64,000 nucleotides of DNA from a virus (Duplodnaviria; Caudoviricetes): positions 21,611-85,610 of IMG/VR virus record IMGVR_UViG_3300022555_000031; one strand, written 5' to 3'. Positions 30,338 to 60,434 of the stretch are shown one piece after another. The notes below the pieces were generated by a model. The model was not told where the DNA came from, ran no database searches, and saw only the letters and a program-made list of their open reading frames with translations. The first letter of the stretch is position 1; each line of letters opens with the position of its first letter. The position numbers and the translations under genes are program-made.

Positions 30338-30338
30338 G

Positions 30339-43600: not shown

Positions 43601-44370
43601 GTTTGAACAAGGTGAAATCGAAGGAGTTGACCGAGGAACAAATTGAGACAGATTTGTTTTATAGGACTTATTATAACGCAGTTGAGCCGTTTATCGAGAA
43701 GGACCCCGATGGCAGGGGACGGTTGAGAGATAAGGGTGACATTCGAGCTGACCTTGAAGAGAAGTTTCCCGCACAAGAGATAAAAAAAGAAGTCCAGAAG
43801 CAGTGCTCCAGGGCACTTGAACAGGCAACCGATTACATGGTTGTTAACGTGGCCCAGGTGCCGATAGAAGCGTTTGCGTTCGGGACTAAGGGTATAAGGC
43901 AGTTTGCGTTCAGGATGGAGCGTGGCAGGTTAATGCTGGCTGAGGTGGTCAGAAGGGCAAACACCAACGCAGACCCATTATACTGGGCCAAGTTGATTGG
44001 TAACTGGATAGACAATTATATGCCGAGAACAATAGAGGAAGATGTCCTTGGGTTGCCAGAACCACAATTGGGCCACAGCGGGAAAAGCGTGCAGGATTTG
44101 CGTGCAATGGTTACTGACAGTTGGATTCAGGAGAAGGAGAATGGTTTCTTTCGCGACTTCTGGTGGTCGAGAAGTCAGTTTTTAATTGACAGAAGGTTAG
44201 GGGATAGCCTTTGCCCAGAGGACTTGCAATATGATGAGGAGTTTATACCTGCAGTCGTGCAAGGGTTACAGAGTCTTGGATACAGGGTGAGGTTACCAAA
44301 GAGTTTCGTCAAGTATTGGGCAAGAAAAGGCAAGACGTTCGAGCCTAATTTGTTACCACAGGAGGGCTGA
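40690..44370 (+). CDS. large putative internal virion protein (1226 aa)
   Basis: Helical N-terminal region and a W.R...VVLELQSD...W...LFREIL..A domain resembling those in phage polyvalent/ejection proteins. Confidence 0.55.
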   Translation: MSDVIKKLTDLFGRTRPSAMAKMSLGLDKSPEVQQILNDMPKSNRQTGLEEKYRGDWNNQTNKEQPVEQLPKHPGEEKKQDNVEDDVELDEQGNSIPKKPNMFEKIQELVSPPTIFVSQVVKRHMERKAFDNPDPDADPQEGRDTRLLDPENPEYKRRKGFGKPFGDAYEGGELKCNVPAVMSYGVDKYARDKNEMTPAELEKIKKEFSKVKWAPKKDALVSEKYKKNFHSFTGTIATTKQTTTYQVVARSQDTFHEDVISYPFQLMLIRTVIENNASKPKEKTLLNPALTGNLAKRITLGFTEAEAMTSYMAEINIPMKGVAFTSLSPAELVEQKLQSCSDSSAPEKKMIHLQNAINYAGQDNALRQIVSNFIMSEFKDGEDNPWLQELFRFVSSAKILRPEQLESIVFSFYKKVGLAETDVLKMDFPQEILRKWLDDVIKNRSGNVNVEALVVQLDDLSLWKKVYSGTEWMKIVKKYAPERYELAQIGATFAEKMRRMPRIQQSKELVDAVKQITQHYKNKTPEWQAFQDKISKGRVSRKDLSEFLESIGVKAEAWTDIFPAKTVYDKSEVNSLFERLFKSLGDKVETELTQFYETKGKLAKQYAKVRKEREELFASSYKNHDKRFKDQPKLDKLQAQMNDIQRGCTMAEAERIKAMPSGEEKKRAMDAVNAKSMSDAELAYCELLDVVLNGEGFGVPVEKVRQLFSSLSAKYPELYPTKSIMGLLNKPSYTASEVELLVKDFMGFAEEIDKANEKPVKAPKKEEAPRPPKKWQEMTPAEQEEYKAFKARWEAEHQAPAQQQPQQPQTKKYKAPFAYGTDYKVYGNSNQFNIYLKFDPNFTPVPVEIMDKVNYNAHGEGYGCDAQGAICWARCFYISVENFTAWVVLELQSDVVTQWQKRLYPTPIQPLVKEPHPEYAMYRSTVQNYYNDWASALFREILRLAKERNVEVIYVRSAQATTIWTDHVKNSLNKVKSKELTEEQIETDLFYRTYYNAVEPFIEKDPDGRGRLRDKGDIRADLEEKFPAQEIKKEVQKQCSRALEQATDYMVVNVAQVPIEAFAFGTKGIRQFAFRMERGRLMLAEVVRRANTNADPLYWAKLIGNWIDNYMPRTIEEDVLGLPEPQLGHSGKSVQDLRAMVTDSWIQEKENGFFRDFWWSRSQFLIDRRLGDSLCPEDLQYDEEFIPAVVQGLQSLGYRVRLPKSFVKYWARKGKTFEPNLLPQEG

Positions 44371-44633
44371 TGAATAGCACGAATATTGTGAAACGGTTCC
44401 AAACTCGCAAGGGGTATTCTGATGAAGAATTGAGAAGAGGCGTCCCCGCCGTTGAGTTTGCTATTAAGGAAATGGAGCACCAGAAGATGGAGGAGCCTGA
44501 GATTCGTGAGACCCTCCAGGACAATGGTGTCCCAGGGCAGGTGGTTGATAACACGTATGATAATCGGGAAAGAAAACTCATTAAGCACACCACCAAGGAT
44601 GATGACGTCGAAATAAGGGAGGCTGGCGAATGA
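44370..44633 (+). CDS. hypothetical protein
   Basis: TGATG overlap; C-terminal DDDVEIRE. Confidence 0.6.
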   Translation: MNSTNIVKRFQTRKGYSDEELRRGVPAVEFAIKEMEHQKMEEPEIRETLQDNGVPGQVVDNTYDNRERKLIKHTTKDDDVEIREAGE

Positions 44634-47188
44634 TAGACTTTAACCAAATCAAGCCAGCGGTCATGGCTTATATCATCACATACCTACAAATGATACACAG
44701 CCAGTACGGGAAGTTAACCGAGGAGCAGGTTAAGAGTTTTGGCCAGTCGGCATACAATTTGTTCTGGGGGACCCAGCCAGAACTCCAGGCTGACCAGGGG
44801 GCAACTGTTGAGTTGACAAATTGGTTACGGAGCAGGGGTGTTGACGTTGAACTACCTACCCTTGAAGGCAACGCCTCGGCTGGCGGGGCTCCTGAGTTTG
44901 GTTTCCGTCCATCCCAAGTTGCTTATGAGCCTGCGGGAACGTCAACCAACCGAGAGCCACGAGTATCTAATCCGCCTCCAGTATTGGACGAGGATTTCTC
45001 AAAGTCAATAAAGGATTATATCACGGGAGAGGAAGTGGAGAAGGCGTATGAAATAGCGAAGAAGATTCCCAACGGTCCAATTCGTCAGGAGTATATGGAA
45101 AAGGCGATGGACCTTGAGCGTAGATACGATAGACAGCAAACCGCAATAGCACGGATGATGATGCGGAAAAAGGGGGCACAAATGAAAGACAATGACGTTG
45201 AGATAAGAAGCGAGATGGCGAGGTTTGGCGAAGTTAATATACCTCTGCAAATAAATATCGCTAAATTAGCCATCGAGGCATATGTGAGGGTTTTGGAGCA
45301 GACGAACCCTGGCCTTAATGATGCAGGTGCCCCACAGACTGGGTTTGAGATTTATTATAACGTGCAGGCCCCAGACGAAGTTAAAAATGACCCTGACATC
45401 TTGATGAAGATTGTTACGGGGCTTCAGGAGAAAGGGTTTAATGTGAGCATGCCAAGTGGTTCACCTTCTCTTCCAGAGGGAGATATACCTCAGGGTGCGG
45501 GCGTTGGCGGAAGAGAGAGGGAAGAAGAACCCCAGATTCTGCACACACGTCCAAGTGAGCCCAATGAAAAGCCAGAGCCACTTCCGTCCATGGGGAAAGA
45601 GCATGCGTTGCCACCGTGGAAAGTCGGACGCAGGGAAAATATCTACGAGTTTGAAGACGGCACTATCCTGAGTGTGGACTTGCCCAGGAAAAACTTCAAG
45701 CAGTTTGCCGAGCAGTTTGACTATGCGACAACTGTTTGGCAGATAGAGAACAATGTGGATAATTTTGCCAAGTTCCTTGGGCGTTATGGGGTTAACGCAC
45801 ACGTTCTAAGTGAACAGGAGAAAGGAGATTATCTCGTCTCCCAAGGTGGGCATACCAGGACTGAGGACGGGGATGTGGTTCCAAATGCTAATACGGACAG
45901 AGAGAAGAATGATGCTGGGGTTGCCTTCAGGAAGGAGTTGCGGAAACTTATCCGCCCCAACATCAGCAAGGATGAGGTTAGGGACAAGATAATCGATATC
46001 GGTCTCAAGATGAAGGGTATGCCAGAGGGGCCAGAGAAGGCCGACCTGCAGAGACAAATGGACAATTTCAATAGCCAATTGGAGACGTTTGAGTATTACG
46101 AAGCGTCTCGTAAAAATAACTTACCCAAGACGGGAGGAAATATGAACAGGGATAAAATAGTTAAAGAAGGAAGTGTTGGACGCAGGGGGCTCAGTTCGTT
46201 GATGGAGTCTTTTGTGGAGGTAGCGAAAAAGATTGTGACGGCGAAGACACCATCTCTCGGCCCCATCAATAGCGACACGGAGGCGTGGGTGTTATTTCAG
46301 AAGAAGTATTCCGAGTTAACTCCAGAGGAAGAGAAGACAGTGCAAGAGGAGCTTGCTAAATATCCTCATGAAGAGGCGGGAGCGAGCAATTTTCCAGAAC
46401 ATATGGCTATGGCCGATGCCAAGGCAATGGGGTTTTTCAAGAAAGCGAAGTCCTGCGGGTGGGGAACGTTTGCTATGGACCCGCTTGATGGCGGGGCAGG
46501 TGGCATCTGGTTCACGGAGAAAGGTGATGACGGGAAAGACTATCTCGTGAAACAAGTTACCCAAGAGGGCGAGGTAGTGAGAAGGTTCAAGGAGAAGCAG
46601 GCGTCGCTTGTGAAGAAGGCCGATAAAAAGACCTGTGTTAAATGCAACACGGAGTTTGACCCGTATTGCCCAGCACAGACGAAATGTGAGAGCTGTGAAA
46701 AAGAACAGCCAGAAAGCGGTAACTGGCAGGACAAGAAACAAACACCTAAGGCTCCTCAAGACAGGAGCCAACTCCAACCTTATAACTTAACCAAAGAAGA
46801 CCATGAGAAGAAGGTTAAGGATTGGATGAGGAACTCCAGTGAGAATAAAGACCGTGGTATATTCACAGTCTACACGAAGAAGCCTGTGGACATGAAGGGC
46901 TCAGCTCTCGGCGAGAAAGAGGCCAAGAAAGAGAAAGGAGTGTTCCAGGTGTATAAGAGTAAGCCAGCGGAGAACGTTGAGAAGAAAGCTATCCTATCCT
47001 GTCCGCAATGTAAGGAAGAGATGGAGACGGTCAGCCAGACGGATTTCCTTGAAAAGGGTCAGAGGCCTACGGCTGAATACTACTGCAATAGATGTGAGGA
47101 GTATTTCGACTGGGCAAGGGGTAGTGGGTTGAAGAAGCGGAACAGCGAGAAGCCAGAGTGGGATGCTGGGGCGGGGATAGAGAGATAA
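44630..47188 (+). CDS. modular head-region protein (852 aa)
   Basis: Internal duplicated helical module (AYIITYL.../AYVRVL...); KKA junctions; Zn ribbons. Confidence 0.65.
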   Translation: MIDFNQIKPAVMAYIITYLQMIHSQYGKLTEEQVKSFGQSAYNLFWGTQPELQADQGATVELTNWLRSRGVDVELPTLEGNASAGGAPEFGFRPSQVAYEPAGTSTNREPRVSNPPPVLDEDFSKSIKDYITGEEVEKAYEIAKKIPNGPIRQEYMEKAMDLERRYDRQQTAIARMMMRKKGAQMKDNDVEIRSEMARFGEVNIPLQINIAKLAIEAYVRVLEQTNPGLNDAGAPQTGFEIYYNVQAPDEVKNDPDILMKIVTGLQEKGFNVSMPSGSPSLPEGDIPQGAGVGGREREEEPQILHTRPSEPNEKPEPLPSMGKEHALPPWKVGRRENIYEFEDGTILSVDLPRKNFKQFAEQFDYATTVWQIENNVDNFAKFLGRYGVNAHVLSEQEKGDYLVSQGGHTRTEDGDVVPNANTDREKNDAGVAFRKELRKLIRPNISKDEVRDKIIDIGLKMKGMPEGPEKADLQRQMDNFNSQLETFEYYEASRKNNLPKTGGNMNRDKIVKEGSVGRRGLSSLMESFVEVAKKIVTAKTPSLGPINSDTEAWVLFQKKYSELTPEEEKTVQEELAKYPHEEAGASNFPEHMAMADAKAMGFFKKAKSCGWGTFAMDPLDGGAGGIWFTEKGDDGKDYLVKQVTQEGEVVRRFKEKQASLVKKADKKTCVKCNTEFDPYCPAQTKCESCEKEQPESGNWQDKKQTPKAPQDRSQLQPYNLTKEDHEKKVKDWMRNSSENKDRGIFTVYTKKPVDMKGSALGEKEAKKEKGVFQVYKSKPAENVEKKAILSCPQCKEEMETVSQTDFLEKGQRPTAEYYCNRCEEYFDWARGSGLKKRNSEKPEWDAGAGIER

Positions 47189-47191
47189 TAG

Positions 47192-49372
47192 ATGTCAACC
47201 CAAGAGGTCTTAAATAGATACTCAAAGAAGGTGCCGAAGAAGACAGCACCTACGAAAGTCTTGCCAGTAGTTGGCCAGAAGTATGGGAGTGAACATGGCA
47301 CTGGTGACCTGACGTATCTTGGGCTCTTTGACACGAGACATTGGTTCATGGATGACGACTTTTTGTTTTTCATGGGCGACCTTTACAACCAGGAAGAGAT
47401 TCGTAAGTTGGCCATAGAGAACCTCAATGGAAGCGATGAGGAAAAAATCCGCACATTACTGAATGACCATGTCGGCAAAGAAGGAATAGACGGGGCGTTT
47501 AATGACTACATGGACGAGGACTATGAATATCGCTTAAAGGAAATGTCGTGGAAGGAATTGTCGGAGGAACAGAAGGCACAGTTCTTTGAGCAGAATGACG
47601 AGTATGAACCAGGGGACATGACCGACCTGGACACGGTTTATGTGTATGACATCGAGAGAGATGTTGAAGACCAGCGGTTCTCTTTGGATGAAACAAACAT
47701 TAATGAGTATCACTATGATGACTCCTCGTCCCAACGGGAGATGTGGTGGCAGGATATTGCCGATAATCTTTTCGACATGGATATAACGAGAGGGAAAATT
47801 GTCGACTTCAGGAATAGTATTCTGGAGGGCCTGGAGGAGAACGGAGAGATTTTTACTGAGGCAGGGCTTTACGAAGATGAGACAGTGAGAATTGGCGACT
47901 CATGGTATCTGGGTGGTGCTGATTCTGATGGGTGTATTTTCGCTTGGCTCATCAGGAACCACGCTTACAGGCTCTTATTCCTGCAATCGATTCTGCCAGT
48001 GGTTTGTAAATTCCATCCAGAGTTGAAGCAGGTATTAGCGGATGTTACCAGTGCGACCACCGCTGGGCTGGCTCCGATAGAGGCGAAAGAATTGTTATCC
48101 AAATATAACGATGGGCCGTTCGACGGATTGATTGAGGCGTTGTTGGAGCTCTATGAAGACAACATAGCAACCGCAGAAAGGTCTACAAAGAACGGGATTT
48201 TTCAAGCGAAATATGCTAAAATACCATTACCAGACAAAGAAAACGCTCTATCAAAGAGTGCTTGGAACGAGTCTGCAACACTACCGACAAAAGTTATTGC
48301 AAGGGCGATTAACGAAGAGGGTTACTACGGGAAGCACCAGTGGAAGGCGGAGTATCATCCGAACGTATCTTTTGAGTTGTGGCACTACGGCACCAAGATT
48401 TTCAGTATAGATTTTAGAGAGAAAACAGCCAGTATGGCTGGTGCCTGGTGGACGCAGGGTGACAAGATTGGAATAAATATTGCCTTGGGACATTTTCGTG
48501 TCGGATATTATGACAACTTTGGGTATGTGCCAGCGGAAGGTTGGAAGGATAAGGATAAGGCCAGAAGAAACCTCCTTGCAGTTAGACGGGAGATAATAGA
48601 GGCCCAGGGGTATATGGTTGAGCAAGGTATGAACTCTAAGCGTGTTAGGGAATATGTCATCCAAAAATATGCACGCTTGCTTCAGGGCATTGATGCTTAC
48701 ACAATAAACGATATTATCAGTGAGGCTTGGCAGGGCGTTAAATCTGCTTATCTTAATAACGTGGAGAGAAGGATTGGTGACGAATACAGCCCCGAGAAAA
48801 AGTCACAGTTGGAGTCGGAGCTGATTAACCAGTATCTACCGTTTGGATTACGGCGTAACGATATCAGACGGAAACTTGACCGCCTGCACAACGAACATGT
48901 AAGAGACGGGGCGGGCAAAGAGCGATTCGGGGTGTTGGAAAGTATAATTAAAATGATGTCAGAGGGCAAGTCTTACGGCGAGGCGAAGGCGGAATTACTC
49001 CAGAATGCCCCCTCTGATTTCGTAAGAGACATTATCAATGAGGCCATTAGCAACCCAGCCCACGAAGACAAGTTGCAGTTTCTTGAAGCAATTGTTCAGG
49101 TGGGCTACTCTTCAGGGCTTACCTTAATGGAGACTTACGAGTTTGCCTTGGGTGCAGTGGACGTTTGGAGGACTTGGTGGAGGTATAACGATGGTAGTCA
49201 GAAGGCAACTGAAGAGGTACTTACAGAGCCAGACATTAACCCTATTTTCAAAAAGTATTTTCCAGAAGAGATGATGGACCTGGAAAAACAGATTCAACAC
49301 AAGAAGGCACGTAACCACCGAGAGCTGTATAGCGAGTTAACCGACGAAGAGTATAGGGTAAGATTCCAGTAG
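47192..49372 (+). CDS. modular head-region protein (726 aa)
   Basis: Acidic N-terminal module; K[S]A junctions. Confidence 0.65.
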   Translation: MSTQEVLNRYSKKVPKKTAPTKVLPVVGQKYGSEHGTGDLTYLGLFDTRHWFMDDDFLFFMGDLYNQEEIRKLAIENLNGSDEEKIRTLLNDHVGKEGIDGAFNDYMDEDYEYRLKEMSWKELSEEQKAQFFEQNDEYEPGDMTDLDTVYVYDIERDVEDQRFSLDETNINEYHYDDSSSQREMWWQDIADNLFDMDITRGKIVDFRNSILEGLEENGEIFTEAGLYEDETVRIGDSWYLGGADSDGCIFAWLIRNHAYRLLFLQSILPVVCKFHPELKQVLADVTSATTAGLAPIEAKELLSKYNDGPFDGLIEALLELYEDNIATAERSTKNGIFQAKYAKIPLPDKENALSKSAWNESATLPTKVIARAINEEGYYGKHQWKAEYHPNVSFELWHYGTKIFSIDFREKTASMAGAWWTQGDKIGINIALGHFRVGYYDNFGYVPAEGWKDKDKARRNLLAVRREIIEAQGYMVEQGMNSKRVREYVIQKYARLLQGIDAYTINDIISEAWQGVKSAYLNNVERRIGDEYSPEKKSQLESELINQYLPFGLRRNDIRRKLDRLHNEHVRDGAGKERFGVLESIIKMMSEGKSYGEAKAELLQNAPSDFVRDIINEAISNPAHEDKLQFLEAIVQVGYSSGLTLMETYEFALGAVDVWRTWWRYNDGSQKATEEVLTEPDINPIFKKYFPEEMMDLEKQIQHKKARNHRELYSELTDEEYRVRFQ

Positions 49373-49409
49373 AGTAGATACGCCCGAATTAGAGTAGATA
49401 CGCCCGAAT
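49370..49409 (+). repeat. perfect 20-bp tandem duplication TAGAGTAGATACGCCCGAAT x2
   Basis: Read directly; overlaps the upstream stop codon. Confidence 0.9.
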
Positions 49410-49439
49410 AAATTTGATACGTTTTAGGGAGGATTCCAT

Positions 49440-51941
49440 ATGAACGGCATATTCGACAAGAACTCACACAGGCAACCGAATGAAACACTCGAGAACAAGG
49501 TTGCAAGAGCACAGGGTGCGAAGACATGGTTGGATGTTTTAATAGACGTAGGTAAGAGTGTTGTGGGGATGGAGAAGACGGCCAGTGCCAAACCCCAGGC
49601 GGAGGTTAAGAAGTTCGCCGACAAAGAGCAGTCGGTGATTAACGGCACCCATTATTTTGGCGGGGCCCGTAAGTTTGCCGATACGAAAGACAGGAAGATG
49701 GAATACATCATCGCTTCTGGTAAAGAGATTATCGGCAAGAAGATGGGAGAGCTTAAACTGTCTGGGGCGAAGGCCCTGTTCTTAAAGGCAGACATTAAAG
49801 AGTGGAACGAAGAAACCAACCAGCCCTCCGAAGGGGCTTTGTATTTTGATATAGCATTCCAAGCACCGACTGGCGACCCCAGGACGGTATCAGCGTCAAT
49901 CCAAATCAATAAAGGCCAGCCTCAGGAGCCGTCATATTTTTCAGATGGCGTAGGGAATAAGTATGCGTTCGATGCGAAAGGCATTGACGACCTTCTCCAG
50001 GGGACCGACTTTGAAGTGATGCAGAACCCGAAAGTAGACAGAGAGAATACCTTCTTTGAGAACCCAGGACATCTTGCTGGGTCTCGTGGAAGCATGCCGA
50101 TTAAAGTAGCTGGACGTGAAGGAATGATAAGGCGGGCGAGTATGGGGAAAGTTGCTACCGCACGTGAAGGTCTTATCAGGAAGATATCTGAGGAAGAAAA
50201 AGGCAAGGACGCATCCATGAAAGGTGTTTTCGGTGCGGGCAGGTTTAGATTTAGAAAGAAAACTCCGTCTGATGTCGGCGGGAATATGCCGTATCACAGG
50301 GAGAACAATATACCTTACGAACAGTTCGGGGCGAACGAGAATGACCCCGATGCGTTGGCAGGCAAGGTTTGTCCTGTGGCGAGTGTAAGAAGGAAAGCTG
50401 GCCCGACAAACGACAGGGTGGATGTCCGTGTTCCAGTGGAATCAACGATGCCCACACGCCCAGAAGACAGGGAGCCTGGGAAAGAATATCCAGACAAGAT
50501 GAAGGGAACTATTATCTATTTAAGCGTCGACAATGTGTCGACAGAAGAATTAACTGATGAAGCTAAGAAGAAATACAGGGACCAGGCGTCGCAGTATGGA
50601 GCCATACTGGAAGAGCAGTATGACGCAGAGACGAGGAAATACTGGCTCACAGTAGATACCAAGGGAAAAGAGAAGAGTGCGTCCGTCCAAAGAAAAGCAG
50701 AGGTGGACTCGGATATCCTAAGCGTTGAACAGCACCTTGATGTGAACGAGTTCAGGGATTTTCAGAACTTGCAAAAAGTCTCGGACGATATGTGGACGGT
50801 CATCAGGCAGAGGGAAAAAATAAACGAAGGGAAAGGACTTCCTTCCTACACGAATATAGACTACTCGGACATTAAACTGGTTGACAAACAGATACAGGAT
50901 TACGTTGACCAAGCGAAACAGAGGGCGGGTAAGGGCGAAGAGGCTGAAGTGAACAAGGGTGATGTTGAGATACGGGAACCCGAAGTTCCGAAGAAAGAAG
51001 AGAAGCCAGAAGGGAAACCCGAAGAAGAACTCCCAGAATCTGTCCTGACCCCAGAAAAGGGGAAGGGTAAGAAACCTGGTGAAGGTCTTCCAGAGTTTGC
51101 ATCAGCGAAGACAAGGTTCACGAAGAAAGCCTGGGACCCTTCTATCCCAGAAGGGATGTATAAATGCCCAGGGTGCGGGAAGATAAAGAGCAAAGACGAG
51201 ATGGGGCCCTATGACCTGTGCGAAGACTGCCAGGCTAATGGTGGGGTTCCTCCGAATGCTGGTGCGATGCGTGCTCCAGTAAAGAAAGACAAACCGCAAG
51301 AGGATGTTGACGCCTACGGAAAGATGGCGAGTGCCGACGTTGAGATTAAGGACATGACCAAGAAAGCAGTTACCTCTTGGGACTACCCGCAGGTCTGTGA
51401 GAATTGCAAGATGCTCATTACCCCGACGGGTTACGATGAACTTACCGAGATAGATATGCACAGGAAACCGTTCTGCGGAGCGATTGGTAAGGGTAAGGGC
51501 ATTGGTTTCGAGTTCGCCCACTTCAGGGAATGTAAAGGATATGACCCGATGTCGAAAGAAGTCGGCCAGGAAGTTGAGGTAAACGTCTACAAGAAACCCT
51601 ACCAGTTGCATAGGGTGAGTGGCCAGACTGAAAGGTTGATGGTTAAAAAGGCCAGCATGGACAAACTGGTAGCTGAACGGAAAGCTCACGCTACCGAGCA
51701 GATGAGAAGAATGGCCGAGGAAGCAGAAGGAACGGCTCATCCAGAGTGTGCAAAGTGTAAAGATTGCATACCCGCAGGTGAAGGCCATGTCGCTCACGAC
51801 TACTGCAAAGTATGGCAGACAGCGTGTTCAAATGTAGTTGTGATGCCGTCTGGGGCGTGTGTCCCAGTAAGTATCGCAAGCCAGAGCTCTGAAACGCAAC
51901 AGAAGACAACGGGTCAATTCAATAGGGGACAAGAGGTCTAA
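49440..51941 (+). CDS. modular head-region protein (833 aa)
   Basis: GGGAGG RBS; many K/R-x-A junctions, two REG motifs, Cys-rich mini-domains. Confidence 0.65.
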   Translation: MNGIFDKNSHRQPNETLENKVARAQGAKTWLDVLIDVGKSVVGMEKTASAKPQAEVKKFADKEQSVINGTHYFGGARKFADTKDRKMEYIIASGKEIIGKKMGELKLSGAKALFLKADIKEWNEETNQPSEGALYFDIAFQAPTGDPRTVSASIQINKGQPQEPSYFSDGVGNKYAFDAKGIDDLLQGTDFEVMQNPKVDRENTFFENPGHLAGSRGSMPIKVAGREGMIRRASMGKVATAREGLIRKISEEEKGKDASMKGVFGAGRFRFRKKTPSDVGGNMPYHRENNIPYEQFGANENDPDALAGKVCPVASVRRKAGPTNDRVDVRVPVESTMPTRPEDREPGKEYPDKMKGTIIYLSVDNVSTEELTDEAKKKYRDQASQYGAILEEQYDAETRKYWLTVDTKGKEKSASVQRKAEVDSDILSVEQHLDVNEFRDFQNLQKVSDDMWTVIRQREKINEGKGLPSYTNIDYSDIKLVDKQIQDYVDQAKQRAGKGEEAEVNKGDVEIREPEVPKKEEKPEGKPEEELPESVLTPEKGKGKKPGEGLPEFASAKTRFTKKAWDPSIPEGMYKCPGCGKIKSKDEMGPYDLCEDCQANGGVPPNAGAMRAPVKKDKPQEDVDAYGKMASADVEIKDMTKKAVTSWDYPQVCENCKMLITPTGYDELTEIDMHRKPFCGAIGKGKGIGFEFAHFRECKGYDPMSKEVGQEVEVNVYKKPYQLHRVSGQTERLMVKKASMDKLVAERKAHATEQMRRMAEEAEGTAHPECAKCKDCIPAGEGHVAHDYCKVWQTACSNVVVMPSGACVPVSIASQSSETQQKTTGQFNRGQEV

Positions 51942-53359
51942 TGCACAAGCCCAGGTCCTGGGGACAGATTTATTCGACGAGGGAGTCGAGCAAGGTTGCG
52001 GATAACCTTATCTCGCACTTGGCTGTATACGACCCCTACCAGCATCCAGATGAACCGATATGTGAGACTGGGGTATCGTTGAATGAAATACGTGGCAGGA
52101 TTAAGGACAGGCTTGATGCGGTTCCGAAACATTATATCAGCGAAAGAGCGAAGTCTCAGGCGATTAGATACCTGACGAGTTACGTCTTCAACACGATAGG
52201 CGAGCACGATAAACAAGTCAACGTGTTTGATTACATCGACCACTTCACCACTAAATACATTAAGGATAAAACCGAGACCTATTGGTCTGGGAAGCCCACG
52301 AGGAGCAAGATAAGGACCACAAAGTGGATGGATAAATATTTTACTCCGACCGAAGGCGACAAGGAAGGGAAGGGGCCGACAGCCAGTATGAGCGGTGAGA
52401 TGTTTAGAGAGGCCATTGATAAGGGCACAATGGTCTATGTCGGCCTCGACGGTGACGATATGGGTAAGATGGTGGAGGAGGGATTGCTTACCGACGACCC
52501 AGAAATTGCCAGCAGAATAAGTAGAGACATCCACAAGGCCCACGAAGAGATAGGGAAAGCCGTTAAGTCGGTTAAAGGCGAGGTGGTATTTGACGGTGGG
52601 GACAACATGCTTCTTTACGTCCCCTACGACGAAGACTTCTTTGAAATCTGCAGGAAAGCGTATCTTGATTGCACGACACACACAGTGACTATCGGTGTCG
52701 GAGAGAGACCGATACAGGCCCATTTTTCGCTGGTGTATGGGAAGAATACAGGGAAGGATAAGGTGGTTGTATTCTCCCCAGAGATAGAATCCGAGCTCAA
52801 AGAGATACGTGAGAAGCAGAAGGGTATTGGTGATTCACTACAGCAATTAAAGTACAAGGCCAACATAGGCTGGGAGTTGAAGTCTGTCTTGAAAGAAATC
52901 AGTATGCCGACGGATGATGAGGTGATTTACGCTACGCTTATCCAGTCGCTTATAGACTACGACTTGGACGATTTTATGAAGATAGGATTGTTCTACACTC
53001 AGCCGTCGGATATCTTATTCGAAAAGATTTGCAGTATGAGTTTCGAGGATGTAGAGAATCAACTTGAGAAAGTGTCTACCGAGTTACCGCTTGAAGAGCA
53101 CGTAAGGACTGCGGATGGCGGGGGCCCTTTCTCGAACGAGATAAGACATAACGATACCGAGAATCCAATCAGCCCAGTGAAGAAGAAAGTGCCAGGAAGG
53201 AAATACAACTGGCTGAACTGGGAGGATATGAATCCCGAACTTAACAAAAAAGAAAACAGTGGAATGGCTCCTCATATGAGAAGCCAGTTCTCTGACAATA
53301 TGCCAGAAAGCCAGTTTAGTATGGGTGGCGAACCAGGCAACGCTGTCGCACCCTACTAA
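51941..53359 (+). CDS. protein with a minimal CRISPR polymerase (mCpol) nucleotide-cyclase-like domain
   Basis: 52430-52773 encodes VYVGLDGDDMGK...VVFDGGDNML...VTIGVG...AHFSLVYGKNTGKD, matching the mCpol palm pattern. Confidence 0.8.
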   Translation: MHKPRSWGQIYSTRESSKVADNLISHLAVYDPYQHPDEPICETGVSLNEIRGRIKDRLDAVPKHYISERAKSQAIRYLTSYVFNTIGEHDKQVNVFDYIDHFTTKYIKDKTETYWSGKPTRSKIRTTKWMDKYFTPTEGDKEGKGPTASMSGEMFREAIDKGTMVYVGLDGDDMGKMVEEGLLTDDPEIASRISRDIHKAHEEIGKAVKSVKGEVVFDGGDNMLLYVPYDEDFFEICRKAYLDCTTHTVTIGVGERPIQAHFSLVYGKNTGKDKVVVFSPEIESELKEIREKQKGIGDSLQQLKYKANIGWELKSVLKEISMPTDDEVIYATLIQSLIDYDLDDFMKIGLFYTQPSDILFEKICSMSFEDVENQLEKVSTELPLEEHVRTADGGGPFSNEIRHNDTENPISPVKKKVPGRKYNWLNWEDMNPELNKKENSGMAPHMRSQFSDNMPESQFSMGGEPGNAVAPY

Positions 53360-53378
53360 AATTTAAGGAGGAAATACT

Positions 53379-55625
53379 ATGTCCCAAGTCTACGGTCTAC
53401 CCAACGAGCCCAAGAATGCGGAAGAGGGCGGTTTCTGGAAAAATCTTGCTGGCAAACTCAATCTGCCTTTTGAGAAATACGCCAGTGCCAACAAGGCGAA
53501 GGCAGGGCTGGATGCGTCACAGCGTTTAGCTTCGGGGTCCTTTACACCGATAGGTGTAGTGAAGCCCAGGGAGTTAAGGCTTGTGGCTGGAGGGACTGAG
53601 ATAACGGTAAAGACCTCCGCTACACAGAAGAAAGAACTTGAGGGGATGTTTAATAAAATTATCTCCTCACTGGCCTATATGGGTGACACCTTAACCAAAT
53701 CAGGTGTTCAGATAACCCAGGAAGACAAGGTGAGAGACATCAAGAGTTATATCGATGCAAGTGAAGCCATCAAGAGAGCGAAGGCTAAGATTAAAGATGC
53801 GGAAACGGCTATGGGCTCGCTTGAGCCGAAGCTGATGGAATACTTCAAGGCGTCTGATGCGGAAGTAAAAATACTCGAGATAGAGGCTGGATTTATCCAG
53901 TTATCAGAGAAGCCCGTGAGAGCGGTCCCTTCGTATAAGAATGTCGTGGAAGAGGTCAAGAAGAAACTGACCGACTTCAGCGACCTGATTGACGGCCTGG
54001 TAAAGAAGTATACTCCGAGCGGGACGAAAGAGTTTATTGATGTTCACCCGAGACAGGGTAATTCTATGCTCAGGATGAGAAGGGTTGCGATATCGCCAAA
54101 GGAAGCGGATGACGTAAGGGATACTATCAACGAGGCGGTAAACGACCTCAAGATAGCGAATAACCTGATACAGTTCTTGCTCGACGAAAGCGTATCAGCC
54201 GAGATACCTGGACAGCCGATGGAAGCACCGATGCCAGGGATGGACACTCCTCCTGACGTAAATCCTGAAATGAATCCCGAGATGAATCCTGGGATGAGCG
54301 ATGGAGTGATGCCAGAAGAAGCACTTGTCCCGATGAGCCCAGCACCGATGCTGGCCAGCCAGAAATACAGTTTGTTTAAGAAAGCCGATGGGCTCTGCCC
54401 GAAGTGTGAGGGCAATGGTAAGGTGATGGATGACGGGATTAACCACTGTGATGCTTGTGGCGGGACTGGCGAGGTGGGTGTTGGCGGACAGGCAGGGAAA
54501 TACGAAGTCTTTTATTCCGACGGGACTTCGGAGGTGTTAGATTTAACTGAGCCAGAACTCGACAGCATCAACGAAGATATAGGGAATGGTATCGTGAAAA
54601 CCGTATACATTGGCAAGACGGCCATGAAGAAGAGGGCGGATGGCACTCAGGGAACTTGGGATATCGAGAACTATAAGAATGTAGACAGGTGCCGTGACTG
54701 TGCGTTCTTTCAGTCTGACCCTGGAGGGTCTCACTTAAACAAGTGCCATGACTGTGTGCACTATAAACTTGGTGGCACGATAGACTACTTTACACCGAGG
54801 AGCGGACAGATTGTCACGCAAACCCCGACCTACAAGACCCCAGACACCGACAAGAAGGCGTTTGTTGGGACGATAGGGATGCCGAGGAAGGCGAATACTG
54901 GGGACGATAAATTGGCGAGAAAATTATTGGGAGAAGAAGAAATAAAAAAACATGAGAATGGCACCTGCAGGTGTGATTTAACAAATGGGGGATATGGGTT
55001 GTGTATGGCGGGGCAATGGTTGGAAGGGGTAACCACCTCGGAAGATGTTATTGGGGAGCTTGGCGAATCGCAACCAGAATCATTACCCAGGAGAGAAGGT
55101 GCCAAGAAGCCCAAGGTAGATGTCATCAAAACTCAAGATACAAGCCTTGAGGACAAGGTATCATTCAAGGGAACAATAGGGATGCCGAGGAAGGCGGAAG
55201 ATGTACCCCATGAAGTTGCTGGGACCTGCCCAGCCTGTGGCAAACGAAACACACTGCTTGTCACTAACGAGGAAAAAGAGTATGATGCGGATTTTGTTTG
55301 CGACAGGTGCGGTGTCTCTTCCCATTTTAGCGAATACGATACAGATGTTATCGAGCTGGAGGGTATGGCTGTTAAGGCGGATGTTGATTCTCTCCCAAAG
55401 CCAGTAACCTCTAACGCCGAAGAGAAAGAGATTCAGATGGGTATAGAGGTCGAGAAGGAGCACCAGGGGACGCTTGAAGAAATCGAAAGAGACGCCCTGG
55501 AAGGTCACCTTGAACCCATGGAACATTATCTTCGGGATATCGCCGAAGACCATGTCAAGAAAGAAATCAGCGACTACTACACCCGCCTGAAGAAGATGGA
55601 GGAAGAAGCTAAGCAGGGTTTTTAA
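53379..55625 (+). CDS. modular head-region protein (748 aa) with C-terminal DUF5661-like domain
   Basis: MGIEVEKEH...IAEDH..EISDYYTRLKKME; several Zn-binding mini-domains; KxA junctions. Confidence 0.65.
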   Translation: MSQVYGLPNEPKNAEEGGFWKNLAGKLNLPFEKYASANKAKAGLDASQRLASGSFTPIGVVKPRELRLVAGGTEITVKTSATQKKELEGMFNKIISSLAYMGDTLTKSGVQITQEDKVRDIKSYIDASEAIKRAKAKIKDAETAMGSLEPKLMEYFKASDAEVKILEIEAGFIQLSEKPVRAVPSYKNVVEEVKKKLTDFSDLIDGLVKKYTPSGTKEFIDVHPRQGNSMLRMRRVAISPKEADDVRDTINEAVNDLKIANNLIQFLLDESVSAEIPGQPMEAPMPGMDTPPDVNPEMNPEMNPGMSDGVMPEEALVPMSPAPMLASQKYSLFKKADGLCPKCEGNGKVMDDGINHCDACGGTGEVGVGGQAGKYEVFYSDGTSEVLDLTEPELDSINEDIGNGIVKTVYIGKTAMKKRADGTQGTWDIENYKNVDRCRDCAFFQSDPGGSHLNKCHDCVHYKLGGTIDYFTPRSGQIVTQTPTYKTPDTDKKAFVGTIGMPRKANTGDDKLARKLLGEEEIKKHENGTCRCDLTNGGYGLCMAGQWLEGVTTSEDVIGELGESQPESLPRREGAKKPKVDVIKTQDTSLEDKVSFKGTIGMPRKAEDVPHEVAGTCPACGKRNTLLVTNEEKEYDADFVCDRCGVSSHFSEYDTDVIELEGMAVKADVDSLPKPVTSNAEEKEIQMGIEVEKEHQGTLEEIERDALEGHLEPMEHYLRDIAEDHVKKEISDYYTRLKKMEEEAKQGF

Positions 55626-55660
55626 CAGCCAACGCAGGAGTAACGTCAGCCAGCGTTGGG

Positions 55661-56005
55661 TTGACAAGACGGGCAGATAACTTGGACTTAATTCAGAACG
55701 ACCAACCTATTGATAATGGGCCAAGACAGTTACTGCCAAGACATAGGAGACGGTTCAGAAATGAACCGCAAGGTCAGGATGAAACTATGTGGGATGGATT
55801 AAAAGGTGGTGGAGGATATGGTGGAGCCTTTAGAGGTGTTGGGACTGATAGCCCTGGAGACTGCGGTGTGCCAAATACGACTGCAAAAAGAAAAATCAGG
55901 ATGCGTCGGCCAGAAATTATCCCAGAGGAAAATCCTCTTGGAGACCAAGAGACAAGGGAAACGAAACAAACAAATTGGGAATTCGACCAGGTGGAATCCC
56001 GCTAA
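55661..56005 (+). CDS. hypothetical protein
   Basis: TTG start; fills the gap; start uncertain. Confidence 0.5.
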   Translation: MTRRADNLDLIQNDQPIDNGPRQLLPRHRRRFRNEPQGQDETMWDGLKGGGGYGGAFRGVGTDSPGDCGVPNTTAKRKIRMRRPEIIPEENPLGDQETRETKQTNWEFDQVESR

Positions 56006-56251: not shown

Positions 56252-58438
56252 ATGTCACAAGGGAGACGGAACATGGTTGAGTCGATAGTCCCGAGCAACG
56301 AAAGGGGCCCAGAGATAATAGTCGATAACGTTAACCAATCGTTCATTGACATGCAGAAGACCGCTGGGGCCGACGGCGTTGTCAAATACAGTGCCAAGCA
56401 AAACCTCCCGCAAATCCCGAAGAGTGCGATGCGTAGGATGGCACAGGCCAAGGCCGACATATTCAGACAGCCAGCAAGTTTCTATCACCCATTATACGAA
56501 GGTATCAATCTTCAGTTACCAACCAAGACAAGGGAAATTAACCAGTGGTGCCGTCACTTTTACAAATGTCTCACCCCAGACACAATGGTTTTGATGGCAG
56601 ATGGGAGCACGAGTTGGATAACAGATGTGAAGATTGGAGACAATGTAATCACGCACAATGGAACCCCTGCAAAGGTTAACGAGGTCTTCAAGAAAGACAT
56701 AGAGGATGAGTTGTATGTTGTTTACACCAAGGGCATCTTACGGCCAATTAAAGCGACCAAACAACATCCTTTTTACGTTATAAAGAAAGCTACTGATGTG
56801 AACGTTGGGGCTCCTGTGTTCGTGGAAGCAAGGGATTTGCAGGTTGGTGATTACGCCTTATATCCGATAAACAACAATGATACTGTGGATGTGGAGAGGC
56901 ACATTAAGGCGTTTGGGAGCAATGTGCGGATACTTCGCAATGGATACATGTTGCATGAGATAGAGAAGATTGAAAAAGTAGGCAAGTATGTTGGCAAAAT
57001 TTATAACCTCAACGTTGAAGGTGAGTTCAATTCCTTTGTTGCGGGTGGCGTAATAGTTCACAATACCGACGCTATGGTCGGCACCGCTATAGATATTCAC
57101 AGTGAACTTCCGCTTACTGGTTTTACCAATGTGTGTGACGACCCTGCAATCCAAAAGTTTTTTGACATCATAGCGTTTGATGTCCTTCACCTCCCGAGCC
57201 TTTTAAGAGACATAGCTTTGGAGTATTGGAAGGTTGGGAATGTGTTCCCGTTTGGAGAATGGAACGAAGATTACGGGGTGTGGACCAGGTTCTCTTTGCT
57301 GAATCCAGACTTCGTAGAGGTTGAGAAATCTCTTCTTATTGACCACCCTATAATGAAACTGGACCCAGATGACAATCTGAAGAGAATTATTACAAGCAGG
57401 CAACCGAAGGAACTTTATGAACAACTTGCCAAGATAGAGGACGGTGCGATAGTTGCATTGATAGCCAGGGGAGAAAAGGTCCCACTGGATAACGACCATG
57501 TTTCGCACATCGCTCATAAGCTGGCATCATATGAGACCATTGGAACCCCGTTAATGTTCAGGGTGTTCAAGCCTCTCATATATAAGGATTTAATCAGAAG
57601 GGCACAGATGGCGATAGCGGAAAGGCATATCACCCCGCTTAAACTCGTTAAGGTTGGTTCGGACACGGCCCCAGCGACTCCAGATGCTATCACAAACGTC
57701 AGGGAGAGCCTGGATTCACTTGGCTCCGATTTAAGTGCGTGGTTTGTTTATCACCATGCTATATCGGTTGAATATGTAGCGTCCAGTGGGCACGTGATGC
57801 CATTGAATACAGAGTATGACTGGATAGAAAAAGAAATGTTAATGGGTCTCGGAATCAATAAGGCAATACTTATCGGGGAAGGCCCTACGTACGCAAATGC
57901 CTCAGTGGGTTACCAGGTTCTTGTGAGCAGGTATATAAAGTTCCAGAACATGCTTATAGACTGGATTAAGACCTTCGTCTACAAGAGAATCGCAGAGGAA
58001 CAGGGGTTTTATAGGGTCGACCGTGTCAGTGGGTTAAAGGAATTGATAATCCCTGATGTCGAGTTCGAGTTGATGAGACTGAAGGAAGACGCTCAGTTAA
58101 GGAATCTTTATTCAGGAATGGTCAAGTCTGGGCTCATCAGCAAGAGGACGTTCTATGCGAATCTTGGAATCAATTACGAGAAAGAAACACGCCAAATCCA
58201 GAAAGAGAAACTGGAAGAGAAGCGGATGAAAGAGATAGAGAAGGGCAAGGAACCGCCGAAACTTGGTCCTGGGGAAGATATGGGTCTGGGGGCTCCAGGC
58301 GGTATGGGTGGTGGCATGGGTGGTGGGATGGGCCTTGAAGAGGCACTTGATGGCGGTCCCGCAGGTGGTGACTTAGAGGGTGATAGCGGAGCCCCAGGCG
58401 GTATGGGCGGAACTCCTCCAGCACCAGAGGTGGCATAA
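56252..58438 (+). CDS. portal protein (intein-containing)
   Basis: Precedes the gpF-like and protease genes; about 560 aa after splicing; GNVFPF, LNPD.VEV and AQ.AIA.RH.TPL patterns; Gly/Pro-rich tail. Confidence 0.75.
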   Translation: MSQGRRNMVESIVPSNERGPEIIVDNVNQSFIDMQKTAGADGVVKYSAKQNLPQIPKSAMRRMAQAKADIFRQPASFYHPLYEGINLQLPTKTREINQWCRHFYKCLTPDTMVLMADGSTSWITDVKIGDNVITHNGTPAKVNEVFKKDIEDELYVVYTKGILRPIKATKQHPFYVIKKATDVNVGAPVFVEARDLQVGDYALYPINNNDTVDVERHIKAFGSNVRILRNGYMLHEIEKIEKVGKYVGKIYNLNVEGEFNSFVAGGVIVHNTDAMVGTAIDIHSELPLTGFTNVCDDPAIQKFFDIIAFDVLHLPSLLRDIALEYWKVGNVFPFGEWNEDYGVWTRFSLLNPDFVEVEKSLLIDHPIMKLDPDDNLKRIITSRQPKELYEQLAKIEDGAIVALIARGEKVPLDNDHVSHIAHKLASYETIGTPLMFRVFKPLIYKDLIRRAQMAIAERHITPLKLVKVGSDTAPATPDAITNVRESLDSLGSDLSAWFVYHHAISVEYVASSGHVMPLNTEYDWIEKEMLMGLGINKAILIGEGPTYANASVGYQVLVSRYIKFQNMLIDWIKTFVYKRIAEEQGFYRVDRVSGLKELIIPDVEFELMRLKEDAQLRNLYSGMVKSGLISKRTFYANLGINYEKETRQIQKEKLEEKRMKEIEKGKEPPKLGPGEDMGLGAPGGMGGGMGGGMGLEEALDGGPAGGDLEGDSGAPGGMGGTPPAPEVA
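56567..57064 (+). mobile_element. mini-intein (166 aa) in portal
   Basis: CLTPDT... block A; ATKQHPF block B; IYNLNV block F; VIVHN/T C-terminal junction; no endonuclease. Confidence 0.9.
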
Positions 58439-58767
58439 TGGCACACGAACCGATGTTGGATTATAAGTTGCTCGAGCAATTCTCTTTCCAAGAGGTCATT
58501 AAGATGACCCAGGATGCGGAGGCGAGAAAGAAATTAACCTATCGCATGGGGTCTACTCCTCAGGGGAAGTATGGAAAGATGGTCGACTACATTAAGTCTA
58601 AATATGGTAAAGAAGTTTTTGCCGACAAAGTTGATAAAGTTATCAGGACGTTCTTTGAGGATAAAATAAACATCCTATTGGATGCTCCTGAAAAGTACGA
58701 CGGGCAGGCCATGAAGATAGACTTTGCGGATTTGTTTAAGAGACTCTCTGAACCCGAGGTGAAGTAA
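58438..58767 (+). CDS. hypothetical protein
   Basis: TAATG overlaps at both ends. Confidence 0.65.
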   Translation: MAHEPMLDYKLLEQFSFQEVIKMTQDAEARKKLTYRMGSTPQGKYGKMVDYIKSKYGKEVFADKVDKVIRTFFEDKINILLDAPEKYDGQAMKIDFADLFKRLSEPEVK

Positions 58768-60434
58768 TGGGCAAGTATGTCTCCTTTTATAAGGTGGCCG
58801 TTGAAGAAGATATGTCTCAATGGATACTCGAAGAATGGCTCAAGGCTGGGTTCAGGGAACTCGAATGGGAATACGCCTATGAGGAATGGAAGGACACCAA
58901 GAAGTGGAAGGACCAGGGGAGTGTTTGCCCGACCTGTTTCGCTCTGGACGGTCATAGGTTTAAGATTCAAGATGTTCTGGATAAAACCACACATAACGCA
59001 CCGAAGTATTCCATGAGCCACGTTGGGTGTTTTTCAAAGGACACGGAAATATATACTGAAGATGGGTTTAAGTTGGTAAAGGATGTTAAGGTGGGAGACA
59101 AAGTGTTGGCGTTGAACCCAAAGACTCTTGGCCTTGACTGGGTCAAGGCGATAGACACTGTGAGTTACAAGCAGGATAAGATGATACACTTCCACAATAA
59201 GAACCTTGACTTATTGGTAACTCCAAACCACAGGATGTTTCATGTTACGCCATACATGAGGTCGTTGGGTCGGAAGGAAGGAAAGTTTATCGAGGCAGAT
59301 AAATTGCCAAAATCAGCATTATTTTATCGTTCCTCTGAATGGAAGGGCAAGGACAATAATGCCCTGCAATTTGGTTTGACTATGGAAGAGTTCTGTAAGT
59401 TTATGGGGTATTTCTTGGCGGAAGGCAGTCTGGGGCGGATTAACCAAATAATGATTGCACAGTTTGATAAAGCAAAAAAGAAGAAAATGTGGAACGATTT
59501 GAGGGTTATGAACTTCAAAACAGTGTCCAATGTAAAACAGGGTATCTATATTAACGCACCAGAGTTGTATAATTACTTGAAGCAGTTTGGTAAATGCAAC
59601 GAGAAATATGTTCCGAGGATGATAAAAGAGCTACCCGCCAAACTAATTAGGATTTTTCTTGATGCGTTCAGGTTGGGAGATGGGTCTACCGTGAAACCCA
59701 AGCAGAAAATAGGTGGATACGAAGCGAAGGTCAGGAGGACGTATTGGACATCCTCAAAGCGTATGGCGGATGATTTAGGTGAGCTAATAATTAAGGTTGG
59801 CAAGAGGCCGTGTTATTATCTTGCAAAACGCAAAGGGAAGGTACAGCATTTCAAAAACGGGGACTATACCATAAACCATGATGTATGGACTGTCGGTGAA
59901 GGTAATGGTATTTATTCTGGCGGGTGTAGGAGCCGTGTAAAGAGAGAAGTGGTTGATTACAATGATTACGTGTATTGTGTTGAATTGGAGAAACATAATA
60001 CATTGTTGGTCCGTAAGAGTGGAACGGTTGTTTGGTCTGGGAATTGTTACTGTAGGATGAAAAGGATACCCAGGGAGGATGAGAGACTGGACTATCCGAA
60101 GGAACAGGAAACGAAAACAATGGAGCAAAAGTTAGACGACATTGGTTACACGGTTGTCCATATAGAAGAGGGCATCCGTGATTTATTTCAAAGACAGGGT
60201 GTTAAGTTTGAGGAAAGCGACATCCAGGACGTGAAGCAAAAGGTCCTTGAGTATGCCGAGGGATTGTCGATGTCAAACAAGAGCACAGCTCGAGACCAAA
60301 TCTGGAGAACGATACAGAGAGAGGTTTGGGCGATTACGAAGCAACGGAAAGGTAACGCCAGCTACTTTGGCTTTATTAGGATAGCGAATCAGGTCAAGAG
60401 AGAATTAGGGAGGACTTTATATGGCAATGAATAA
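58767..60434 (+). CDS. minor head morphogenesis protein (SPP1 gp7/Mu gpF-like), intein-containing
   Basis: VCPTC..LDG...SHVG|CYC reconstitutes the gpF CxxC...HxxCxC motif; lies between portal and protease. Confidence 0.75.
   Translation: MGKYVSFYKVAVEEDMSQWILEEWLKAGFRELEWEYAYEEWKDTKKWKDQGSVCPTCFALDGHRFKIQDVLDKTTHNAPKYSMSHVGCFSKDTEIYTEDGFKLVKDVKVGDKVLALNPKTLGLDWVKAIDTVSYKQDKMIHFHNKNLDLLVTPNHRMFHVTPYMRSLGRKEGKFIEADKLPKSALFYRSSEWKGKDNNALQFGLTMEEFCKFMGYFLAEGSLGRINQIMIAQFDKAKKKKMWNDLRVMNFKTVSNVKQGIYINAPELYNYLKQFGKCNEKYVPRMIKELPAKLIRIFLDAFRLGDGSTVKPKQKIGGYEAKVRRTYWTSSKRMADDLGELIIKVGKRPCYYLAKRKGKVQHFKNGDYTINHDVWTVGEGNGIYSGGCRSRVKREVVDYNDYVYCVELEKHNTLLVRKSGTVVWSGNCYCRMKRIPREDERLDYPKEQETKTMEQKLDDIGYTVVHIEEGIRDLFQRQGVKFEESDIQDVKQKVLEYAEGLSMSNKSTARDQIWRTIQREVWAITKQRKGNASYFGFIRIANQVKRELGRTLYGNE
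59028..60044 (+). mobile_element. LAGLIDADG intein (339 aa) in gpF-like gene
   Basis: CFSKDT start; VTPNH block B; FMGYFLAEG and FLDAFRLGDG; VYCVEL block F; WSGN/C end (penultimate Gly). Confidence 0.9.

Follow-up and report, generated by a model that had tools for sequence, protein, structure and literature searches.

An mCpol nucleotide cyclase domain in the head-assembly block of phages related to phage G

Introduction

A 64,000-nucleotide stretch of DNA from a virus of the Caudoviricetes (the window; bases 21611-85610 of the 85.6-kb IMG/VR virus record IMGVR_UViG_3300022555_000031, which is estimated to be 75% complete) contains, at 51941-53359 on the + strand, a gene for a 472-amino acid (aa) protein that carries a true, full-length, and seemingly intact minimal CRISPR polymerase (mCpol) domain. 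We propose that this is a head-block protein of a large, uncultured phage distantly related to Bacillus phage G, with a competent mCpol core that acts on host sensing and is probably delivered by the virion, a reading to which we assign a probability of about 0.5; its mechanism is predicted from sequence, on the grounds of conservation, synteny, and analogy.

The mCpol family was reportedly defined by Burroughs et al. in 2015. In bacteria, mCpol is the synthase of Panoptes, an anti-phage guard (PMC12657218, PMC12657230), and it always works together with an effector (PMC12657218, PMC13577387). An initial annotation of the window had described Panoptes as a system in which a cyclic dinucleotide keeps a toxic effector off until phage sponge proteins deplete it, and this account agrees with the published ones (PMC12657218, PMC12657230). 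One of the founding papers also anticipates a phage counter-move (PMC12657218); in the literature that we found, neither a phage-encoded mCpol nor a phage counter to Panoptes is described.

Results

The 472-aa protein has a full-length mCpol domain

The gene and its enzyme domain are placed as follows.

51941-53359, + strand: gene for the mCpol-carrying protein (P0001), 472 aa, from the open reading frame (ORF) call and relatives
52430-52774, + strand: mCpol (Cas10-palm) nucleotide cyclase domain, residues 164-278, from Pfam, PADLOC, PDB, and a structural model

The Pfam family mCpol (PF18182) matched residues 166-278 over its whole length (profile positions 1-114 of 114) with an E-value of 2e-18 and 67.3 bits against a cut-off of 26.4, and the same profile gave 70.2 bits in a six-frame search of the record. 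The runner-up Pfam match was Cas10-Cmr2_palm2 (E 5.8e-9), PADLOC returned CARF_HEPN_mCpol (E 7e-12) together with several Cas10 models, and the only solved structures matched by sequence were those of Klebsiella mCpol/OptS (9nwn, 9mnr/9pd0; E 2e-6). No protein tested gave a PHROG match to the mCpol segment. We then modeled the protein with AlphaFold2 (58 sequences), obtaining a predicted confidence (pLDDT) above 90 over residues 160-300. The top six Foldseek matches of the model were all OptS/mCpol chains, with TM-scores of 0.83-0.85 by target and root mean square deviations (rmsd) of 1.6-1.9 Å over 115-117 columns; for 9mnr_A, the values were 0.84 and 1.8 Å. In an exhaustive VIA-align comparison, 9mnr_A reached a Z of 16.9 with 116 of 119 residues aligned, and the best GGDEF domain a Z of 13.6.

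The protein has a single palm, and other Cas10 domains were absent from its Pfam scan; it is thus unlike the Cas10 of type III CRISPR, which has an HD domain, two palms, D2/D4 domains, and Csm/Cmr partners, and no cas genes were present among the ORFs scanned. Closer is the likeness to OptS/mCpol (type I KpOptS, 9mnr, 9pd0, and 9nwn; type II from Cylindrospermum), which belong to the same Pfam family and have the same minimal Cas10-palm fold. Both share the two metal-binding aspartates, the specificity serine, and the C-terminal K..GK motif, and both are devoid of an HD domain and of a second palm. Sequence identity is, however, ~24%, and the phage mCpol is flanked by unrelated helical parts and followed by a disordered tail within a 472-aa protein, lacks any partner of the 2TM-beta or CARF-TM kind, and is encoded in a phage head-assembly block instead of a bacterial defense island.

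These data bear out several proposals of the initial annotation. The ORF on the + strand is present as it had claimed, with 472 aa; the cyclase construct that it had delimited, 52430-52773, corresponds to residues 164-277 and so to the domain bounds; and the two checks that it had called for, an mCpol profile and a structure prediction, returned PF18182 at E 2e-18 and a fold that superposes on OptS. The short motifs that it had listed (DGDD, GGDN, K..GK, FREA, and KYKA) were all located in the protein.

Catalytic motifs are invariant and the cyclase core is the most constrained stretch

Three motifs mark the predicted active site.

52448-52459, + strand: DGDD, residues 170-173, includes D170
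52595-52606, + strand: GGDN, residues 219-222, includes D221
52742-52756, + strand: K..GK (K268..G271-K272), residues 268-272

In a gap-free alignment, Asp6, Ser30, and Asp57 of KpOptS correspond to D170, S194, and D221 of the phage protein. These three residues are unchanged across ten family members, as are the FDGGDNML hairpin and the GVG.RPI.AH and GKNTGK motifs. In KpOptS, Asp6 and Asp57 hold the metal and are required for activity (PMC12657218), and position 30 tunes the product mix between 2',3'-c-di-AMP and 3',2'-cGAMP (PMC12657218); a serine at this position hints, by sequence, at an adenine product for the phage mCpol. The fourth position of the hairpin is Asn in the phage protein (GGDN), Asp in Cas10 and type II mCpol, and Gly in active OptS (AADG); the phage hairpin is canonical and comes nearer to the GGDD of Cas10 than that of OptS does. 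In type II mCpol, the D63N/D64N substitution abolishes activity (PMC13577387).

Comparison with distant relatives gave identities of 60-63% for the mCpol core, 24-30% for the N-terminal domain, and 12-17% for the tail, and the portal proteins of the same genomes are 52-56% identical. The mCpol core is thus the most constrained stretch of the 472-aa protein, which argues for the predicted catalysis.

One may ask whether the palm instead has a structural, assembly, or nucleotide-binding role in the formation of the head and portal, its cyclase chemistry being incidental or lost. The gene does occupy a core position in a morphogenesis block, and a precedent is offered by Myxococcus phage Mx1. When the mCpol domain alone was searched against 50,697 phage records, the only match was Mx1 WNM70340.1 (marginal E 0.05; 2e-8 by pairwise BLASTP), a 468-aa protein of the neck and tail gene region (OR576727.2, 33963-35369, upstream of the tail sheath gene) with its mCpol-like domain at the N-terminus. 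Like the protein studied here, it carries an mCpol-type domain on a structural-module protein of a large phage. The carriers are nevertheless unrelated, the domain is internal in our protein and N-terminal in Mx1, and the two lineages differ, our phage having a phage-G-like portal. The decisive difference is in the active site: Mx1 has SWSID in place of LDGDD and DLGAV in place of DGGDN, so that both catalytic aspartates are replaced and the domain looks like an inactivated copy, whereas in the family studied here they are invariant. Indeed, all catalytic and nucleotide-binding motifs are invariant across relatives that are only ~30% identical overall, which is the signature of a working enzyme, and we therefore hold a purely structural palm to be very unlikely. 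If the enzyme did serve assembly, it would represent a new role for the Cas10-type palm.

The gene holds a fixed place in the portal-proximal block

The surroundings of the gene were characterized by Pfam and PHROGs scans and by comparison with related records. The features that could be placed are these.

11502-13223: terminase large subunit, upstream of the mCpol gene
27125-28636: collagen-like tail fiber gene, upstream of the mCpol gene
49440-51941, + strand: upstream 833-aa gene, overlapping the start of the mCpol gene, conserved and syntenic in relatives
53379-55625, + strand: downstream 748-aa gene with a C-terminal DUF5661, likewise conserved and syntenic in relatives
56252-58438, + strand: portal, interrupted by an intein (phrog_16240, E 2.7e-57)
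58767-60434: conserved head gene bearing a Hint/intein domain (Pfam/PHROGs scans)
60616-63999, + strand: head maturation protease with a LAGLIDADG intein (phrog_18299 on residues 101-200), running off the contig end

The ATG of the mCpol gene shares bases with the TAA of the preceding 833-aa gene (TAATG) and lies 7 nucleotides downstream of a ribosome-binding site, AAGAGG. The next gene begins 19 nucleotides past the mCpol stop codon, with an AAGGAGG site before its start, and we found no + strand terminator-like sites between the mCpol gene and its neighbors. Because of the overlapping start and stop and of the lack of intervening + strand terminators, the mCpol gene is translationally coupled to its upstream neighbor and is one cistron in a long + strand operon. 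Both the window and the record stop 10.6 kb downstream of it.

Among cultured phages, Bacillus phage G is the nearest, with 39.5% identity for the portal (gp14) and ~40% for the terminase; it has no counterpart of the mCpol protein or of its neighbors, and the gene is missing from its portal region. Four IMG/VR relatives (L002-L005), of high G+C content and 33-37% identity, have the same gene order: the homologue of the 49440 gene, the mCpol protein, the homologues of the 53379 and 55661 genes, the portal, the homologue of the 58767 gene, and the protease. The mCpol gene is thus two genes upstream of the portal in this phage and in four distant relatives. Because this order is shared, the gene belongs firmly to the portal-proximal block in this lineage and is not a mobile moron.

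The family is found in few places. The 472-aa protein occurs as an identical copy on 16 contigs, the longest of 122 kb, and 14 full-length relatives were identified; for the lineage, contigs of 122-161 kb exist. Among 1.84 billion cluster representatives, searched exhaustively, only nine proteins reached E ≤1e-30, seven of them full-length relatives of 329-623 aa. No family member was present among 185,579 species-representative prokaryote genomes, and in the 50,697 phage records, there was no DNA or full-length protein match to the mCpol gene.

Other features of the region were also recorded. Hint/intein domains occur in three genes, namely the portal, the gene at 58767-60434, and the head protease, the intein of the last containing a LAGLIDADG endonuclease. 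The ORFs 44630-47188, 49440-51941, and 53379-55625 each end with a Cys-rich, zinc-ribbon-like segment. A papain-family Peptidase_C1 domain (E 3.4e-12) in a 284-aa ORF at 3644-4498 could represent a further processing enzyme, in addition to the head protease and a zincin. A run of very large ORFs without family match also lies upstream of the mCpol gene.

The cyclase is embedded in lineage-specific flanks with a conserved tail

mCpol is the sole recognizable enzyme domain of the 472-aa protein, the N-terminal domain and the C-terminal half being unmatched. The flanking parts and two short motifs within them are listed below.

51941-52024, + strand: predicted disordered leader, residues 1-28, with near-invariant T13 and R14
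52025-52345, + strand: helical N-terminal domain, lineage-specific, residues 29-135, without recognizable fold match
52400-52414, + strand: MFREA, residues 154-158, in the linker six residues before the first cyclase strand, a possible head-protease site
52847-52861, + strand: LKYKA, residues 303-307, within the helix of residues 280-319
52898-53086, + strand: small helical domain, residues 320-382
53087-53356, + strand: C-terminal tail, predicted disordered but conserved, residues 383-472, with W-L-x-x-E-D-x-N ... GG.PG.A.APY and a Gly-rich end

The leader holds a TRES motif, which reads TREG or TREA in two close relatives. Folded alone, the N-terminal domain had no convincing structural relatives (best Z 6.5, in the noise range of helical bundles; BFVD E ≥0.4), and one relative, P0010, has no N-terminal domain at all. 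Looking up residues 1-160 and residues 285-472 in the Atlas yielded low-score leads only and nothing usable. Residues 136-163 form a linker ahead of the cyclase, and a 40-residue helix (residues 280-319) follows directly on its C-terminal side. Relatives carry a helical insert of ~150 residues after residue 382. Searches of the genome and of the relatives returned no paralogues of the flanks. Among close relatives, the tail is 68-78% identical, exceeding the identity of the domain that precedes it, and this conserved disordered segment suggests a candidate docking or incorporation signal.

The initial annotation had interpreted FREA and KYKA as junction-like motifs on the two sides of the cyclase. 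Both are present and KYKA is invariant; FREA proved to be a weak tag match, and KYKA does not behave as a general junction. The tag in question, NILLREG, occurs ~30 times in ORFs of the region 13223-40665 and not at all in the block 40690-55625, and the tagged ORFs are four huge ones (13223-16954, 17755-25806, 30267-35498, and 36592-40665). In phage T4, the head protease follows the rule L/I-x-E. The NILLREG tag ends in L-x-E and so resembles the T4 rule. We defined a relaxed pattern of the tag, [LIVMF][LIVMF][RK]E[GAS], after the MFREA site had been seen; its copies number from 4 to 13 in each of three of the polyproteins, with one in the fourth, and overall it gave 22 matches in the four tagged proteins versus 2 in 11,853 residues of untagged proteins. 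The two untagged matches are MFREA in the mCpol protein and IVKEG in ORF 44630-47188 (residue 510). Shuffled 472-aa sequences matched the relaxed pattern 6% of the time, a chance level of ~0.06 for a pattern chosen post hoc.

MFREA is retained in three of four close-clade proteins, including P0001 (LFKES and MVKEA being the other forms), is lost in the fourth (VFKKA), and does not occur in the distant clade. As a polyprotein junction, MFREA is thus a weak candidate: it matches the relaxed tag at p 0.06 and is kept in close kin only. The distant clade (P0005-P0009, L004) has PPTDREAA in a disordered linker ~20 residues before the cyclase, where an Arg-Glu-Ala site again marks a domain boundary; these phages are devoid of NILLREG arrays. 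In the 139-kb relative G003, there are large ORFs in the corresponding region and no NILLREG array.

All the family members that we examined (P0001-P0015) have LKY[KR]A without exception, and 84-100 residues past the GGD motif, it also occurs in six mCpol proteins from outside the family whose C-terminal parts differ. At each related locus, KY[KR]A occurs once, in the mCpol gene only. Since it is found once per locus and follows mCpol in unrelated architectures, we take it as a part of the enzyme module, not as a general junction, and its sequence context suggests that an extended mCpol module ends here, with the motif serving perhaps for oligomerization or as a cleavage point. The possibility that LKYKA is a recurring cut tag was discarded, as KY[KR]A does not recur in other head proteins.

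By analogy, T4 internal proteins and Alt, which are targeted to the capsid, processed, and injected, offer a candidate model for how the enzyme might reach the next host; the likeness is that this phage, too, has a head protease, along with a tag that ends in Glu, NILLRE|G, and resembles the L/I-x-E rule. The difference is that the mCpol protein has no such tag except the weak MFREA match. The description of the gene as lying among internal virion proteins, made by the initial annotation, accordingly needs to be narrowed: the gene is in a phage morphogenesis block, but in an untagged, portal-proximal part of it (44370-56005) that is separate from the tagged polyproteins (13223-40665).

No effector, receptor, or sponge was found with the cyclase

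When the larger ORFs of the record were scanned with Pfam and PHROGs, no CARF, SAVED, TIR, 2TM-beta, or cas genes were detected; the same scans found replication and recombination genes upstream (RuvC, Mre11/Rad50-like, ThiF-like, and sliding clamp). Six-frame family searches were made on five related records, this one and L002-L005, which are 30-79% complete. Cap15_CD_rec, SAVED, and CARF were absent from this record, Cap15_CD_rec and SAVED from the four incomplete relatives, and GGDEF, Acb2, and Tad2 from all five; the searches for Cap15, SAVED, and Acb2 had no positive control, so these absences are soft. A sponge of the Acb2 or Tad2 type, which would make a replenishment of the signal necessary, was therefore not among the genes recovered in the five records. 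By a hydropathy scan of + strand ORFs, no ORF with multiple transmembrane segments was found near the mCpol gene, and the single two-segment ORF of the record (87 aa; G000 20603-20866) is ~53 kb upstream. The absence of adjacent CARF, transmembrane effector, and cas genes, noted already in the initial annotation, holds within the reach of the Pfam, PHROGs, six-frame, and hydropathy scans, which were all negative, and no receptor or effector for a cyclic nucleotide was found in the recovered parts of the five related genomes.

A 289-aa DHH phosphoesterase is encoded in the replication region, 55 kb upstream (G000 18245-19114; phrog_4771, E 5e-41, with weak Pfam DHH/DHHA1 matches), and the DHH family takes in cyclic-di-AMP phosphodiesterases and nanoRNases. 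We discarded it as a conserved partner of the cyclase, since it is missing from the four related records.

An explanation in line with the bacterial systems would be that the gene is one half of a phage-borne signaling system, acting in a Panoptes-like superinfection exclusion or in the lysis-lysogeny decision, with its effector in the unrecovered part of the genome. The record is ~75% complete, the relative G003 is classed as a provirus, and bacterial mCpol always comes with an effector (PMC12657218, PMC13577387), all of which would fit. In known Panoptes systems (types I and II), however, the effector, OptE (2TM-beta) or CARF-TM, adjoins mCpol, whereas the neighbors here are conserved head-block genes, and no Cap15-type receptor, SAVED, CARF, or multi-transmembrane candidate lies in the vicinity, with as much as 139 kb covered in one relative. 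Moreover, Panoptes is host-encoded and often lies beside CBASS, whereas this gene belongs to a phage record and stands between the terminase and the portal. On balance, a phage-borne system of this kind seems to us highly improbable.

Kin of the domain occur in polyvalent-type proteins

Phage polyvalent proteins carry InPase, RelA/SpoT, and GGDEF domains and are predicted to be packaged and injected (PMC5512222). For their GGDEF cyclase, Iyer et al. 2017 suggested an interference with the nucleotide responses of the host; mCpol is not mentioned in their text on polyvalent domains (PMC5512222). The protein studied here is like them in having an enzyme domain on a protein of a virion/packaging gene module, and it differs in having a single recognizable enzyme domain and neither zincin, MuF, nor portal fusion. 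With regard to the proposal that an injected signal synthase would be a new counter-defense strategy, none of the papers that we found describes a phage mCpol, but the idea stands less alone than this wording implies, its logic having already been put forward for GGDEF in polyvalent proteins (PMC5512222).

The nearest mCpol domains outside the family include ones in polyvalent-type proteins. P0017 (1297 aa) combines mCpol with a polyvalent-type InPase matching the PHROG "minor head protein"; P0020 (1992 aa) has ligase, mCpol, GGDEF, PrimPol, and sigma domains; and P0029 has mCpol, GGDEF, and a sugar isomerase-like domain. A pyrophosphatase beside the cyclase, as in P0017, would drive the reaction forward. 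The loci of P0017 and P0029 were not found among viral contigs. In a tree, unrooted and built on few columns and hence to be read as a hint only, the family and P0017, P0020, and P0029 fall outside a well-supported clade of 122 mCpol domains.

These relationships also bear on whether the enzyme is packaged at all. It might be active without entering the virion, as a late cytoplasmic enzyme whose product would adjust the physiology of the host while virions assemble and the cell lyses, for example, by controlling the cell wall or the osmotic state in the manner of cyclic-di-AMP, or by blocking late-acting abortive-infection effectors. The gene lies within a late structural operon, its protein does not have the NILLREG tag of the likely cargo, and free GGDEF cyclases are known from phages, such as Gp350 of phage G and the cyclase of phage SP-15. 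A cytoplasmic enzyme, on the other hand, would need neither a fixed place at the side of the portal nor conserved non-enzymatic flanks and tail, and the closest kin of the domain include those in polyvalent-type proteins. We regard an unpackaged enzyme as unlikely, while keeping it in serious consideration.

Discussion

How the proposed virion-delivered cyclase may act on the host

Under the reading that we favor, the protein would be a late-operon product of the head-assembly block whose core is a predicted, catalytically competent mCpol cyclase. The enzyme would make a cyclic di- or tri-nucleotide from ATP, like OptS and type II mCpol, and the product would act on host proteins, since the recovered part of the phage genome encodes no recognizable receptor. 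The likeliest effect would be a disturbance of nucleotide-based immunity, either by keeping Panoptes-type guard effectors off or by perturbing further sensors of cyclic nucleotides. Recruitment to the head during assembly would be the task of the helical flanks and of the conserved disordered tail, and the enzyme would thereby be on hand at the onset of the next infection.

A more specific version, close to what had initially been suggested, is that a head-loaded, injected, and constitutively active mCpol forges a decoy of the 2',3'-c-di-AMP or cA3 type that silences Panoptes-type effectors. If this were true, CBASS or type III CRISPR signals could be depleted by the phage, or by another phage infecting the same cell, with the guard untripped, and there would be no earlier example of a phage counter to Panoptes or of a signal synthase delivered by the virion for immune evasion. 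We judge this version as a whole to be quite unlikely.

Several observations weigh against a delivered, active cyclase. The mCpol protein is devoid of the NILLREG tag that marks the likely cargo polyproteins of this phage, and the surrounding block, portal and protease excepted, has no recognizable virion-protein families. At the fourth position of the hairpin, the motif has Asn and not the Asp of Cas10 and type II mCpol. The in vitro turnover of type II mCpol is about once per hour (PMC13577387), and if the phage enzyme were, by analogy, equally slow, a few injected copies might make too little product. The Mx1 domain, which has lost both aspartates, shows that the fold can persist in a structural protein of a phage in the absence of catalysis. 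Neither a sponge nor a phosphodiesterase is conserved as a partner alongside the mCpol gene, and all five genomes are incomplete, as stated above.

Significance for phages and for the mCpol family

In conclusion, the phage protein adds to a known enzyme family a variant that is new in its architecture and in its ecological setting, mCpol having previously been studied solely as a bacterial guard enzyme. The presence of an intact, strongly conserved, and effector-less mCpol in the head-assembly block of a phage lineage points, at the level of sequence, to the possibility that phages may themselves make immune-type nucleotides.

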